From the NCBI RefSeq assembly GCF_057098645.1, contig NZ_CM169472.1: a stretch of DNA of 64,000 nucleotides; one strand, written 5' to 3'. The notes under the pieces are model-generated. The model was not told where the DNA came from and did no database searches. It saw only the letters and a program-made list of their open reading frames with translations. Numbering within the stretch: position 1 is the stretch's first letter; the number at the start of each line of letters is the position of its first letter. This document shows positions 40,286-47,553 of this stretch, piece by piece. The translations under genes were made by a program, and so were the position numbers.

Positions 40286-41941
40286 TTACTTCTGTAACCA
40301 CCAGACAGCCTCAAAAGGCCGTAGAGTCATGGCACAGGGTTGTGGTGAGGCTTCTTCGTAGTTATGCATCACAAGCTGCCAGTTGCCGCGCATTTGCCCT
40401 GGCTGCCAGGGTTGGATCTCACGGCTAAGGTTGGCAATGACCAGCAAGGTTTGCCCCTTCCATTCACGGCGATAGCACCACAATACAGGGCTGTTTGGCA
40501 GCAGATCCTGGTAATTGCCCCATGTCAGGATGGCTTCCTGCTTACGCAGTGCGATTAACTTTTGGTAGGTGTAAAACACCGAGGAATCATCGGCCAACGC
40601 GGCTTCTACGTTGATTTGTTGATAGTTATCGCCCAGGCCAATCCACGGTTCGCCAGCCGTAAACCCGGCATTATCGCCGTTGCTCCATTGCATGGGCGTG
40701 CGGCTGTTGTCACGGGATTTACTGGCGAGGATTGCCAATAACTCGTCGGCATCACGCCCATCGTTGCGCAGCTCGGCAAACATATTGAGGCTCTCTACGT
40801 CGCGATAGTCAGTAATGCGCGTGAAATGCGGGTTAGTCATGCCAATCTCTTCGCCCTGGTAGATATACGGCGTTCCCTGCATGCCATGCAGCACCATCGC
40901 CAGCATTTTTGCCGCAGGCACGCGGTATTCACCTTCATCACCAAAGCGAGAAACAATGCGCGGCTGATCGTGGTTACACCAGAACAAGGCATTCCATGCC
41001 ACGTTGTGCATTCCTTGTTGCCAGTGGCGGAACAATGTTTTCAACGCCACAAAGTCAGGTTTAGCCAGCGTCCATTTTTCACCACCGGGATAATCGACCT
41101 TCAGGTGATGAAAATTAAATGTCATCGATAATTCACTGCCTGTCAGTGCCGCGTATCGCTGGCAATGCTCAAGGCTGGTGGAGGACATTTCACCTACGGT
41201 CATTAACCCGCGTGGCGTAAACACATCGCGGTTCATCTCGTGCAAAAACTCGTGTGCTCGTGGCCCGTCGGTGTAGAAGCGACGCCCGTCGCCGTCCAGG
41301 TCTTCAGGGAAACGCGGGTCTTTGGAGATCAGATTCACCACATCCAGGCGCAACCCGTCGACCCCACGATCGGCCCAGAACTCACAGACTTTTTTCAGCT
41401 CTGCGCGTACCGCTGGATTCTCCCAGTTGAGATCCGCCTGTTCTGGTGCAAAGAGATGCAAATAGTACTGTTCGCTTTCCGCATGCCAGCGCCACGCACT
41501 ACCGCCAAATTTTGAACGCCAGTTGTTCGGTGGCGTTTCTGGTTCGCCATCGCGCCAGATATAAAACTGGCGGTAAGGGCTTTCTTTGTTCAGCGCCTCG
41601 CGAAACCAGGCATGTTGGGTAGAGGTATGGTTAAACACCATATCGAGAATGATACGAATCCCGCGCGATTTTGCCTGCGTCACCAGTTCGTCAAAATCGT
41701 CCAGCGTGCCGTAGGTGGGATCAATCGCCGTATAGTTCGCTACGTCGTAACCGTTATCGACCTGGGGAGAGACATAAAAGGGGGTTAGCCAGATGGCATC
41801 AACGCCCAGTTTATGCAGATAGTCCAGGCGTTGGATAACGCCACGTAAATCGCCGGTGCCGCTACCCGTGGTGTCCTGAAAACTCTTTGGATAAATCTGG
41901 TAGATAACGCCGTTTTGCCACCAGTGGGGAAGATTAGTCAT
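40286..41941 (-). CDS. treC: trehalose-6-phosphate hydrolase
   Basis: 551 aa from MTNLPHWWQNGVIYQIYPKSF (GH13 family). Confidence 0.95.
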   Translation of the reverse strand: MTNLPHWWQNGVIYQIYPKSFQDTTGSGTGDLRGVIQRLDYLHKLGVDAIWLTPFYVSPQVDNGYDVANYTAIDPTYGTLDDFDELVTQAKSRGIRIILDMVFNHTSTQHAWFREALNKESPYRQFYIWRDGEPETPPNNWRSKFGGSAWRWHAESEQYYLHLFAPEQADLNWENPAVRAELKKVCEFWADRGVDGLRLDVVNLISKDPRFPEDLDGDGRRFYTDGPRAHEFLHEMNRDVFTPRGLMTVGEMSSTSLEHCQRYAALTGSELSMTFNFHHLKVDYPGGEKWTLAKPDFVALKTLFRHWQQGMHNVAWNALFWCNHDQPRIVSRFGDEGEYRVPAAKMLAMVLHGMQGTPYIYQGEEIGMTNPHFTRITDYRDVESLNMFAELRNDGRDADELLAILASKSRDNSRTPMQWSNGDNAGFTAGEPWIGLGDNYQQINVEAALADDSSVFYTYQKLIALRKQEAILTWGNYQDLLPNSPVLWCYRREWKGQTLLVIANLSREIQPWQPGQMRGNWQLVMHNYEEASPQPCAMTLRPFEAVWWLQK

Positions 41942-41990
41942 TACGTTATTCCTGCAAATGCGAGGGGGCGCAATTGCGCCCCGAAGAAAA

Positions 41991-43412
41991 TTAAACAATG
42001 TCCAGCGTGCCCAGGCGGTATTTCCGCTGATAGATAAACGAGGTGAGTACAATCGGGATGATGATGGCGATAGCCATTGCCAGCGCAAACACCTGCCAGT
42101 AGCTCGGTTGAATCGAGAGAATTCCCGGCAGGCCGCCTACGCCGATGCCATTCGCCATAACGCCGTTCAGGCCGCATAGCAATCCTGCCAGACCAGAACC
42201 AATCATCGCGCACAGCATCGGGAAGCGATATTTCAGGTTGATGCCGTACATTGCAGGCTCAGTGACCCCAAGCCAGGCGGAGATCGCCGCAGGCACGGAG
42301 ATCTCGCGTTCATTGTGTTTGCGGCTGGAAATGATAATGCCTATCACGGCGGAGCCCTGAGCGATATTCGACAGCGCAATCAGCGGCCACACTGGCGTAC
42401 CACCCATGCTTTGAATCATCTGCAAATCAATAGCAAGCGTGGTCTGGTGTACCCCGGTGATCACCAGCGGGGCGTACAGGAAGCCAAACAATGCCGCGCC
42501 AATCGGAGCAAAGCTGCCGGTCATCAGGTGACGTACCGCAAAGGCAACGCCATCGCCAATCATGCGACCAAACGGACCAATCAGCGCATGGGCGAGGAAC
42601 ACCGCGAGGATCAGCGAACAGACGGGCACCACCACCAGATAGAGGTAATCTGGCACGATGCGTTTAAGGCGAGTTTCAATAACGCCCAGCGCCAGCCCGG
42701 CTAACAGTGCCGGGATCACCTGCGCCTGATAGCCCACTTTGGCGATGCTGAACATGCCAAAGTCCCACACTTCCGGCAGCTGCTGCCCGAGCAGATAAGC
42801 GTTCATCAGCTGGGGGGAAACCAGTGTCACGCCAAGCACGATACCAAGGATCGGCGTGCCGCCCATTTTTTTCACCGCTGACCAGCAAATCCCGACCGGC
42901 AGGTAGAAGAAGATCGCTTCACCGATCAACCACAGAAAATCGTAGATCGTTTGCAGGGAAGGGTACATTTGCGCCAGCGTTTGACCGTTGCTCATGGGCA
43001 AATCGCCGATCACATTGCGAAAACCGAGGATCAAACCGCCGCTGATCAACGCGGGCAGCAACGGGAAGAAGATCTCCGCGAAATGAGAGATCAACTGCTC
43101 ATGCCATTTCATATTCTGCCGGGCGGCTTTTTTTACCTGCTCTTTATCAACCTGCGCCTGTCCGGTTGACGCTATCAGTGCTTGATAGTAATCACCCACG
43201 TTGGTGCCAATCACCACCTGAAATTGCCCGGCATTGGTGAAACAGCCTTTCACCATGGGGAGTTGCTCAATTTCTTTCGGTCTGGCATTGGCCGGTTGGT
43301 TGAGGACAAAGCGCAGGCGAGTAATACAGTGGCTCACCGTCGCAATATTGCCGCGCCCGCCGACCAGTTCAATCAACCGATCGATATCCGTTTGGTTTAT
43401 TTTGCTCATCAT
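41991..43412 (-). CDS. treB: PTS trehalose-specific EIIBC component
   Basis: 473-aa ORF, EIIB cysteine motif near N-terminus, polytopic EIIC. Confidence 0.95.
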   Translation of the reverse strand: MMSKINQTDIDRLIELVGGRGNIATVSHCITRLRFVLNQPANARPKEIEQLPMVKGCFTNAGQFQVVIGTNVGDYYQALIASTGQAQVDKEQVKKAARQNMKWHEQLISHFAEIFFPLLPALISGGLILGFRNVIGDLPMSNGQTLAQMYPSLQTIYDFLWLIGEAIFFYLPVGICWSAVKKMGGTPILGIVLGVTLVSPQLMNAYLLGQQLPEVWDFGMFSIAKVGYQAQVIPALLAGLALGVIETRLKRIVPDYLYLVVVPVCSLILAVFLAHALIGPFGRMIGDGVAFAVRHLMTGSFAPIGAALFGFLYAPLVITGVHQTTLAIDLQMIQSMGGTPVWPLIALSNIAQGSAVIGIIISSRKHNEREISVPAAISAWLGVTEPAMYGINLKYRFPMLCAMIGSGLAGLLCGLNGVMANGIGVGGLPGILSIQPSYWQVFALAMAIAIIIPIVLTSFIYQRKYRLGTLDIV

Positions 43413-43477
43413 AAAGCCCCATGGCAGATGACATTTTTGGTTGGCTGCAGAATATATTGCGCGGAAAAATTTAAAAA

Positions 43478-43491
43478 CGGGAACGTTCCCG
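43478..43491. promoter_or_regulatory. candidate TreR operator (perfect palindrome) in treB promoter
   Basis: cgggaacgttcccg, 14-bp perfect palindrome with central CG, 66 bp upstream of treB start. Confidence 0.45.
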
Positions 43492-43530
43492 AAACGCAGC
43501 GAAGATCACAATTTATCGTTCAGGAAACGA

Positions 43531-44478
43531 TCAGGACAGGGTGGCGGGGATGATGATTTGTTGCGGTTCGCTGCGCCCGGTTACCTGCGCGATCAACTGG
43601 CAGGCCGCCTGGCGTCCAGCTTCGGCGTAACCAGGATCTACGGTGACGATCTCCGGATGAAGGAATTTCATTAATGGCGTATTACCGACGCTCGCCAGTT
43701 GCAAGGTGTCGATGCGTTGTTCTTGCAGGTATTTACTTGCGCCAAGTGCCAGCGTGTCGGTTGCGCACAGTAAGGCAGTAGTTTCAGGCGTAATCACTTT
43801 TGCTACGTTCTCATAGCCTTGCTTCATAGCAAGGCCTGGCAGGGCGGCAACGGGATGCAGTTTATGCGCTTTGCAGAACGCCAGGTAGGCTTCGTGACGT
43901 CGCTTCCCGGTCGTCACGTCACTATGCGGCACGCCGAGATAACTGATATTGCGATGCCCCTGGTCATACAGCCGTTGCATCAGGATCTTGATTGCCCCTT
44001 CGTCGTCATAACAGACCGAAGCAAAGCCTTTTGCGTCACGCGCCAACAGAACCAGCGATGACTGCCAGTGGGCTAACATTTCTTCTGTTATGCCGGTAAA
44101 ACCGAACAGCACTACGCCGTCGATATTACGCCGTTTCAGCACCCCCAAATGTTCGGCAACTAATTGCGGGGAAAACTGACTTTCCATCATGATTGGATCG
44201 TAACCTTGTTCATAGAACGCTGGCAGCATGGTTTGAACGGCGAGATTTTCTGACAACGAATCCAGACGGGTGACAATGATGGCGACCACTTTATCGCTTT
44301 GCCCACGCATAGCGCGCGCAGAGCGGGAAGGGGAAAATCCATGCTGATTCATCACTGCTTCAACACGCTCGCGGGTGCGCTGGCTCACGCCGCTTTCGTT
44401 ATTCAGCACCCGGGAAACTGTAGATTTCCCCACGCCGCTTAAGCGCGCGATGTCTTTGATGGTCAGCCGATTTTGCAT
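43531..44478 (-). CDS. treR: trehalose operon repressor (LacI family)
   Basis: 315-aa ORF with N-terminal HTH LTIKDIARLSGVGKSTVSRVLN. Confidence 0.95.
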   Translation of the reverse strand: MQNRLTIKDIARLSGVGKSTVSRVLNNESGVSQRTRERVEAVMNQHGFSPSRSARAMRGQSDKVVAIIVTRLDSLSENLAVQTMLPAFYEQGYDPIMMESQFSPQLVAEHLGVLKRRNIDGVVLFGFTGITEEMLAHWQSSLVLLARDAKGFASVCYDDEGAIKILMQRLYDQGHRNISYLGVPHSDVTTGKRRHEAYLAFCKAHKLHPVAALPGLAMKQGYENVAKVITPETTALLCATDTLALGASKYLQEQRIDTLQLASVGNTPLMKFLHPEIVTVDPGYAEAGRQAACQLIAQVTGRSEPQQIIIPATLS

Positions 44479-44856: not shown

Positions 44857-47553
44857 ATGTTTAAAGAAATTTTTACCCGGCTCATTCGCCATTTACCTTC
44901 CCGTCTGGTTCATCGTGATCCATTGCCTGGCGCGCAGCAGACAGTGAATACGGTGGTCCCGCCGTCCTTAAGTGCGCATTGCCTGAAAATGGCGGTGACG
45001 CCCGAAGAAGAATTGTGGAAAACGTTCGACACTCATCCGGAAGGGTTAAATCAGGCGGAAGTGGAATCTGCCCGCGAACAACATGGTGAAAATAAATTAC
45101 CCGCACAACAACCGTCGCCGTGGTGGGTACATTTATGGGTCTGCTATCGCAACCCCTTTAATATTTTACTCACCATTCTCGGCGCTATTTCTTACGCCAC
45201 GGAAGATTTATTTGCCGCGGGCGTTATCGCGCTAATGGTCGCTATTTCAACGTTGCTGAACTTTATTCAGGAAGCACGTTCCACTAAAGCGGCAGATGCC
45301 CTGAAAGCGATGGTCAGCAATACCGCGACGGTGCTGCGCGTAATTAACGACAAAGGAGAAAATGGCTGGCTGGAGATCCCGATCGACCAGCTGGTGCCCG
45401 GCGATATTATAAAACTGGCGGCGGGAGATATGATCCCGGCAGATTTACGTATCTTGCAGGCGCGGGATCTGTTCGTCGCTCAGGCGTCGTTAACCGGTGA
45501 GTCTCTGCCCGTGGAAAAAGCCGCTACCACTCGCCAGCCGGAGCACAGCAATCCGCTGGAGTGCGACACGCTGTGTTTTATGGGCACCACCGTGGTGAGC
45601 GGCACGGCACAAGCAATGGTGATTGCTACAGGTGCCAATACCTGGTTTGGTCAACTGGCGGGGCGTGTTAGTGAGCAGGAAAGCGAGCCGAATGCCTTTC
45701 AGCAAGGGATCAGCCGCGTCAGTATGCTGCTGATTCGCTTTATGCTGGTGATGGCACCGGTGGTGCTGTTAATCAATGGTTACACCAAAGGCGACTGGTG
45801 GGAAGCGGCGCTGTTTGCGCTTTCGGTCGCGGTAGGCCTAACGCCGGAAATGTTGCCGATGATTGTTACCTCGACGCTGGCGCGCGGCGCAGTAAAGCTG
45901 TCGAAACAGAAAGTGATCGTCAAACATCTGGATGCTATTCAGAACTTTGGCGCAATGGATATTCTGTGCACTGATAAAACCGGCACCCTGACGCAGGATA
46001 AAATTGTGCTGGAGAATCATACCGATATCTCCGGTAAAACCAGCGAACGCGTGCTGCATAGCGCGTGGTTGAACAGTCATTATCAGACCGGACTTAAAAA
46101 CCTGCTCGATACAGCGGTGCTCGAAGGTACGGATGAAGAGTCAGCGCGCTCGCTGGCCAGTCGTTGGCAAAAAATCGATGAGATTCCGTTTGATTTCGAG
46201 CGTCGCCGGATGTCGGTGGTAGTGGCAGAAAATACCGAGCACCATCAGCTGGTTTGCAAAGGTGCATTGCAGGAAATCCTCAATGTGTGTTCGCAGGTGC
46301 GTCACAATGGCGAGATTGTGCCGCTCGATGACATCATGCTGCGTAAGATTAAGCGGGTTACTGATACGCTGAATCGTCAGGGGCTGCGCGTGGTTGCGGT
46401 GGCGACGAAATACCTGCCAGCGCGTGAAGGAGATTACCAGCGGGCGGATGAATCCGACCTGATCCTCGAAGGATATATTGCTTTTCTTGATCCGCCAAAA
46501 GAGACAACCGCTCCGGCACTGAAGGCATTAAAAGCGAGTGGAATTACCGTAAAAATCCTTACTGGCGACAGTGAGTTAGTTGCAGCGAAAGTGTGCCATG
46601 AAGTGGGGCTGGACGCGGGAGAGGTGGTCATTGGTAGTGATATTGAAACGCTATCTGACGACGAACTGGCAAATCTTGCACAGCGCACCACGCTGTTTGC
46701 CCGCCTGACGCCGATGCATAAAGAACGCATTGTGACCTTACTGAAGCGCGAAGGGCATGTGGTTGGCTTTATGGGCGATGGTATTAATGATGCGCCCGCC
46801 TTACGCGCTGCGGATATCGGCATTTCTGTGGACGGCGCGGTAGATATTGCCCGTGAAGCGGCTGATATCATCCTGCTGGAAAAAAGCCTGATGGTGCTGG
46901 AAGAGGGGGTTATTGAGGGACGTCGCACTTTCGCCAACATGCTGAAATACATCAAAATGACGGCGAGCTCTAACTTCGGTAATGTGTTCAGCGTGCTGGT
47001 GGCGAGTGCTTTCTTGCCCTTCCTGCCGATGTTGCCGTTACACTTGCTTATTCAGAACTTGCTGTACGATGTGTCACAGGTGGCGATCCCGTTTGATAAC
47101 GTCGACGACGAGCAAATTCAAAAGCCGCAGCGTTGGAATCCGGCGGATCTGGGGCGCTTTATGATCTTCTTCGGACCGATCAGCTCGATCTTCGATATTC
47201 TGACGTTTTGCCTGATGTGGTGGGTATTCCATGCCAACACGCCGGAAACACAAACGCTGTTCCAGTCGGGATGGTTTGTGGTGGGCTTACTGTCGCAAAC
47301 GCTGATTGTGCATATGATCCGCACCCGCCGTGTGCCGTTTATTCAGAGCTGTGCATCGTGGCCGTTAATGATCATGACCGTGATCGTGATGATTGTCGGG
47401 ATCGCATTGCCGTTTTCACCGCTGGCCAGTTATCTGCAATTACAGGCGCTGCCGTTAAGCTATTTCCCGTGGCTGGTTGCGATTCTGGCAGGGTATATGA
47501 CATTAACCCAGTTGGTGAAAGGGTTCTATAGCCGTCGTTACGGCTGGCAATAA
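44857..47553 (+). CDS. mgtA: Mg2+-importing P-type ATPase MgtA
   Basis: 898-aa ORF with DKTGTLT phosphorylation motif and GDGINDAPAL. Confidence 0.96.
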   Translation: MFKEIFTRLIRHLPSRLVHRDPLPGAQQTVNTVVPPSLSAHCLKMAVTPEEELWKTFDTHPEGLNQAEVESAREQHGENKLPAQQPSPWWVHLWVCYRNPFNILLTILGAISYATEDLFAAGVIALMVAISTLLNFIQEARSTKAADALKAMVSNTATVLRVINDKGENGWLEIPIDQLVPGDIIKLAAGDMIPADLRILQARDLFVAQASLTGESLPVEKAATTRQPEHSNPLECDTLCFMGTTVVSGTAQAMVIATGANTWFGQLAGRVSEQESEPNAFQQGISRVSMLLIRFMLVMAPVVLLINGYTKGDWWEAALFALSVAVGLTPEMLPMIVTSTLARGAVKLSKQKVIVKHLDAIQNFGAMDILCTDKTGTLTQDKIVLENHTDISGKTSERVLHSAWLNSHYQTGLKNLLDTAVLEGTDEESARSLASRWQKIDEIPFDFERRRMSVVVAENTEHHQLVCKGALQEILNVCSQVRHNGEIVPLDDIMLRKIKRVTDTLNRQGLRVVAVATKYLPAREGDYQRADESDLILEGYIAFLDPPKETTAPALKALKASGITVKILTGDSELVAAKVCHEVGLDAGEVVIGSDIETLSDDELANLAQRTTLFARLTPMHKERIVTLLKREGHVVGFMGDGINDAPALRAADIGISVDGAVDIAREAADIILLEKSLMVLEEGVIEGRRTFANMLKYIKMTASSNFGNVFSVLVASAFLPFLPMLPLHLLIQNLLYDVSQVAIPFDNVDDEQIQKPQRWNPADLGRFMIFFGPISSIFDILTFCLMWWVFHANTPETQTLFQSGWFVVGLLSQTLIVHMIRTRRVPFIQSCASWPLMIMTVIVMIVGIALPFSPLASYLQLQALPLSYFPWLVAILAGYMTLTQLVKGFYSRRYGWQ

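Follow-up and report, generated by a model that had tools for sequence, protein, structure and literature searches.

The treR-treB junction

The window analysed here, a stretch of E. coli DNA of 64,000 nucleotides, carries the trehalose genes treC, treB and treR on the minus strand, with mgtA on the plus strand beyond treR (Table 1). The three trehalose genes agree with NCBIfam equivalogs and with their annotation in MG1655. In terms of Pfam domains, TreR consists of an HTH domain (PF00356) and periplasmic-binding-protein-like domains (PF13377/PF00532). TreR is represented in PDB by its effector domain only (4xxh, residues 61-315), with no DNA complex. The mgtA leader, which is divergent from treR, contains a known element, the Magnesium riboswitch of Rfam.

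Between treR and treB, the window reads cgggaacgttcccg at 43478-43491, which is the perfect 14-bp palindrome CGGGAACGTTCCCG (CGGGAAC/GTTCCCG, with CG at its centre). A sequence-only reading of this DNA had placed such a palindrome in the treB promoter, 66 bp from treB and 40 bp from treR. Its sequence and coordinates are confirmed, as are both distances (43478 to the treB ATG at 43412 is 66, and the treR stop at 43531 to 43491 is 40), and the palindrome abuts a conserved -35 box. The 14-mer has a single exact copy in the window, where its next-best matches carry three mismatches. Its counterpart in MG1655 is found at NC_000913.3 4466246-4466259, between b4240 and b4241, and the 181-bp treR-treB junction is present in 5,417 of 5,426 complete E. 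coli genomes, with at least 99% identity in 5,132 of them. The palindromy of the 14-mer is not significant by itself (five perfect 14-bp palindromes observed in the window, versus 4.84 +/- 2.1 in dinucleotide shuffles). It is location and conservation, not palindromy, that raise this palindrome above chance.

Table 1. Genes and regulatory features of the tre region, in window coordinates.
Feature	Coordinates	Strand	Description
treC	40286..41941	-	Trehalose-6-phosphate hydrolase, second operon gene; TIGR02403 equivalog; MG1655 b4239
Palindrome GGCGCAATTGCGCC	41967..41980		treB-treC spacer
treB	41991..43412	-	PTS trehalose EIIBC, first gene of the regulated operon; NF008236 equivalog; MG1655 b4240
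Putative -10 hexamer TATTCT	43449..43454	-	Assigned from conservation; 17-nt spacer from -35
Putative treB -35 hexamer TTTTTA	43472..43477	-	Directly downstream of the predicted operator
Predicted TreR operator CGGGAACGTTCCCG	43478..43491	.	About -49 to -36 of the treB promoter; sequence, conservation, co-occurrence with TreR homologues
Invariant 12-bp core GGGAACGTTCCC	43479..43490	.	100% identity in 75 distinct sequences; central ACGT never varies
Putative CRP site, 22-mer AATTGTGATCTTCGCTGCGTTT	43492..43513	-	TGTGA at 43510-43506; centre about -61; directly abuts the predicted operator
treR	43531..44478	-	LacI-family trehalose operon repressor, 315 aa; TIGR02405 equivalog, E 6.6e-178
Magnesium riboswitch RF01056	44648..44763	+	mgtA leader; Rfam, 125.8 bits
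mgtA	44857..47553	+	

Conservation in Enterobacteriaceae

The comparative set comprised 80 Enterobacteriaceae treR loci from one genome per species, with TreR 83-99% identical. Conservation is expressed as the fraction of sequences that match the E. coli base in an alignment of 75 distinct intergenic sequences. The core GGGAACGTTCCC is present in 74 of the 74 loci where treB adjoins treR, and conservation is 1.00 at each position of this 12-bp core in the alignment. The C at 43491 is also conserved (0.99). However, conservation of the outer G at 43478 is 0.11, and A is found in its place in 65 of the 74 loci. As the outer G is present in just 11% of the sequences, the conserved element is C-GGGAACGTTCCC, of 12-13 bp, and not the full 14-mer. 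The complete 14-bp palindrome is characteristic of E. coli and a small number of other lineages, its outer G being lineage-specific. In the same 75 sequences, mean identity to E. coli is 0.45 for the stretch from the treR stop to the CRP site, 0.32 for the -35/-10 spacer and 0.48 for the 5'UTR.

In four loci treR has no downstream treB, and the palindrome is also absent in all four: Escherichia sp. E1V33, E. whittamii, one Enterobacter asburiae strain and a Pluralibacter MAG (orphan treR loci L003, L004, L029 and L033). In Escherichia sp. E1V33 and E. whittamii, treR is intact, unrelated sequence follows its stop codon, and treBC is gone together with the promoter and its operator.

In two further Enterobacter loci (L035 and L045), treR and treB are parted by an insert of about 1.8 kb. 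Here the palindrome and the CRP-like site stay about 87 nt upstream of treB, and are not found after the treR stop. The inserts (1614-3290 in L035 and 3449-5200 in L045; Enterobacter chuandaensis and E. quasihormaechei) carry an Hcp-like (type VI secretion) ORF on the opposite strand. In L035, the last 26 nt or so of treR are duplicated, and the copy immediately precedes the CRP and TreR sites.

Arrangement of the treB promoter

On the minus strand, the conserved blocks of the intergenic region follow one another in the order TGTGATC (43510-43504), TTT (43494-43492), the palindrome, TTTT (43477-43474) and T-A-n-n-C-T (43454-43449). Both TGTGATC and TTT are 99-100% conserved. The TTTT block is 92-100% conserved and has a fixed 17-nt spacing to TAnnnT, in which the T, the A and the last T are 96-100% conserved. 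The spacing of the promoter elements is fixed in 74 loci, and the TAnnnT hexamer always begins 23 nt after the 14-mer. By contrast, the treB ATG of these loci lies anywhere between 54 and 196 nt from the palindrome. Thus, the palindrome is locked to the promoter core and not to the coding sequence.

The TGTGA motif can be assigned, on the basis of its consensus and of established knowledge, to a putative CRP site whose left half is perfect and whose right half is weak. In the distant loci described below, TGTGA-N6-TCTCA or TCAAA occupies the position of the CRP site. Transcription of treB probably starts at about 43441-43442, and the centres of the CRP site and of the operator would then lie at about -61, a class I position, and about -43, respectively. 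No sigma-70 promoter was called at treB in a simple consensus scan, and the -35, the -10 and the start are placed from conservation only; such a miss is as expected for a weak, activator-dependent promoter. Across Enterobacteriaceae, the putative CRP site, the predicted operator and the -35 box follow directly on one another, with no gap between them.

RegulonDB is stated to have two TreR sites for treBC (PMC3505978). Within three mismatches of the 12-mer, no second TreR site was found in the treR-treB and treR-mgtA intergenic regions. The sole candidate for a second site is the repeat CGTTTCCTGAACG (43529-43517, minus strand), which matches the left half of the operator and its flank at 11 of 13 positions. 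Read as a direct repeat, the two copies (CGTTCAGGAAACG at 43517-43529 and CGTTCCCGAAACG at 43484-43496, 11/13) flank the CRP-like site. The upstream copy, which overlaps the treR stop region, lacks conservation even among Escherichia. This copy may represent the second TreR site of the databases, or it may have arisen by chance.

Distant TreR homologues

Among the best 120 matches of the TreR homologue search only close relatives were found, and the distant homologues come from a search of 50%-identity representatives. Their tre loci lie in AT-rich genomes and have the gene order treR-treB-treC, as in E. coli; one locus (L089) is on a short contig and gives no neighbour information. Homologues with 49%, 47%, 45%, 41% and 38% identity to TreR carry the helix VGKSTVSRV or VSKSTVSRV, and have (T/C)GGGAACGTTCCCA or near-copies of it beside the tre genes. 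At 49% identity (L083), TGGGAACGTTCCCA abuts TTTACT-N16-TATAAT, and the same TGGGAACGTTCCCA is found at 41% (L088). At 47% (L084 and L085), the order of elements is TGTGA-N6-TCTCA, CGGGAACGTTCCCA, TTTTTA and, after 17 nt, TATGCT. At 45% (L086 and L087), the two sites TGGGAACGATTCCA and TGGGAACGTTACCA are both imperfect and are separated by 46 bp, and at 38% (L090) two TGGGAACGTTACCA sites lie 58 bp apart and upstream of the regulator gene. The 43% homologue (L091) has the helix VSTATVSRAIN, and a different palindrome, TGTAAACGTTTACA, is found instead ahead of the next gene. The motif switches with the recognition helix, and thus it tracks the DNA-binding domain, as expected of the recognition sequence of a repressor.

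The paired imperfect operators of L086 (2805-2865) and L090 (618-690), 46 or 58 bp apart, take the place of one perfect site. This suggests a dual-operator or looping architecture in some distant lineages.

An apparent homologue with 52% identity (protein P0126 of L082, Logan SRR18107613) was rejected as an artefact, being an assembly of bisulfite-converted (C-to-T) reads. The locus is Klebsiella/Raoultella-like, its operator reads TGGGAATGTTTTTA, and translation of the gene does not give the TreR query.

Hairpins at the palindrome and in the treB-treC spacer

As the palindrome lies 40 nt past the treR stop codon, it could act mainly or additionally as an intrinsic terminator of treR, stopping read-through into treBC. 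In the literature, treR is upstream of treB yet outside the treBC operon, so some terminator must exist. The minus-strand transcript can form the hairpin CGGGA-ACGU-UCCCG followed by UUUUUAAAUUUUU, with the fifth base pair supplied by the E. coli-specific outer G, and the consensus scan is positive here (a terminator-like 5-bp stem with four GC pairs, then TTTTTAAATT). However, a hairpin with a stem of just 5 bp has little stability (-6.3 to -7 kcal/mol; for -6.3 kcal/mol, z is -0.8 in context). Most genera have C..A as the outer pair, so that the stem shortens to 4 bp; AUUUUC or AUUUCC comes after it, with T at just 3-5 of the following 8 nt. For a Kluyvera sequence, the minimum-energy fold lacks the hairpin. 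Structure is not conserved over sequence, nor is the element kept at the 3' end of a gene: the ACGT loop is 100% invariant and the stem is without compensatory change, the element accompanies treB and not the treR 3' end in L035 and L045, and in L090 the motif precedes the operon, at a place where no gene ends. A terminator as the main or additional function of the palindrome is thus unlikely. To the same extent, it is doubtful that in the E. coli lineage the operator doubles as a weak treR terminator, with the outer G giving a 5-bp stem before the U5 run. If it did, a single 14-bp element would have two roles, shielding treBC from treR read-through and binding the repressor.

The treB-treC spacer of the same minus-strand operon provides an internal control. 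Here the second perfect 14-bp palindrome, GGCGCAATTGCGCC, belongs to the hairpin GGGGCGC-N4-GCGCCCC, of which the 7-bp GC stem is kept across Enterobacteriaceae; no T-run follows. The central four nucleotides vary freely (AATT, AGTT, ACTT, CGTT, GATG and others). A stem that is kept around a free loop is the signature of an RNA hairpin, in contrast to the treB palindrome with its invariant ACGT. GGCGCAATTGCGCC has the look of an RNA hairpin that is conserved between the two cistrons, where it might stabilise the mRNA, act as a processing barrier or be a partial attenuator.

It is scarcely conceivable that the treB palindrome is a chance occurrence without specific function, or that the conserved block is wholly a CRP site and -35 element, for although perfect 14-bp palindromes occur in the window at the chance rate and the block directly abuts the conserved CRP and -35 elements, 12 consecutive positions are 100% invariant across genera, GGGAACGTTCCC fits neither the CRP nor the -35 consensus, TreR homologues at 38-49% identity in AT-rich genomes carry a matching motif alongside, and the motif changes where the recognition helix differs.

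TreR as the predicted repressor

As a norm, LacI-family operators are even palindromes with a central CG, and most of them precede the start codon by 30-140 nt (PMC4052901). The treB palindrome had been called a LacI-family-style operator on account of its central CG, and this description stands. It is an inverted repeat of even length, in the 14-22 bp range of LacI/GalR operators, with CG at the centre; its distance to the start codon, 66 nt, falls within the family range; and the adjacent treR, a TreR equivalog, is a cognate LacI-family regulator with a LacI-type N-terminal HTH (PF00356). In addition, its phylogenetic footprint tracks the regulator (74/74 loci, and homologues at 38-49% identity). 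The sequence-only reading had further proposed the palindrome as the likely TreR site controlling treBC. This part is strengthened by the invariant core and by the co-occurrence with treB and with TreR homologues, but the extent of the site has to be narrowed, as only the 12-13-bp core is conserved. Taken from sequence comparison, the palindrome is very probably the TreR operator of the treBC promoter.

A TreR dimer would bind the two GGGAAC half-sites, and by analogy with other members of the family the TreR hinge region should touch the central CG step. With the predicted operator fitted between the CRP site and the -35 box, and therefore centred at about -43, bound TreR should block both polymerase recruitment and CRP-dependent activation, presumably by a steric mechanism, since at a class I CRP promoter this position would have to accommodate sigma region 4 and the C-terminal domain of the RNA polymerase alpha subunit. 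Binding of trehalose-6-phosphate would lower the affinity of TreR for the operator, so that treBC would be induced, and free trehalose would act as an anti-inducer. According to the literature, TreR represses treBC, trehalose-6-phosphate induces it and releases TreR, and trehalose, an anti-inducer, stabilises operator binding.

A TreR operator at the treB promoter is already described and is ordinary sugar-operon regulation, and the main value of the present analysis is to confirm the annotation, with little beyond that. There are three refinements: the conserved recognition core is 12-13 bp, (C/T)GGGAACGTTCCC(A/G); the gap-free tiling of CRP site, operator and -35 box appears to be kept across Enterobacteriaceae; and the motif follows the VGKSTVSRV recognition helix out to distant homologues. 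These could help in the engineering of LacI/GalR chimeras or of trehalose-responsive promoters.

Comparison with known systems

Horlacher and Boos are said to have footprinted TreR, in 1997, on a palindrome that immediately precedes the treB -35 sequence. We take this published operator to be the palindrome at 43478-43491, because the position reported for it, next to the treB -35 box on its upstream side, is the position of the palindrome in the window. The two share the organism, the intergenic region and the repressor, and nothing substantive is different, except that RegulonDB reportedly has two sites (PMC3505978) and one was identified in the window. The RegPrecise regulon TreR(1) of Enterobacteriales has trehalose-6-phosphate as effector and covers 12 genomes, with 8 regulons and 8 sites, which is one site per regulon. 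A full-text literature search for GGGAACGTTCCC gave a match only in unrelated Streptomyces work.

The treB site resembles other LacI/GalR operators, such as lacO-sym, the purF operator of PurR and the cre of CcpA, in being an even inverted repeat centred on CG and placed 30-140 nt ahead of the start codon, and the regulators are alike in being dimers with an N-terminal HTH and a hinge. However, its half-site is GGGAAC, as against the common GTAAAC or TGAAAC type, and its conserved palindromic part is short (12-14 bp) compared with generic LacI/GalR operators. It also lies just upstream of the -35, beside the CRP site, whereas lacO1 overlaps +1. The treB element resembles Rho-independent terminators in that a GC-rich hairpin followed by a T-run can form on the treR transcript. 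It differs from them in that its stem is weak (4-5 bp), its loop is invariant, its T-run is not conserved, and it segregates with treB.
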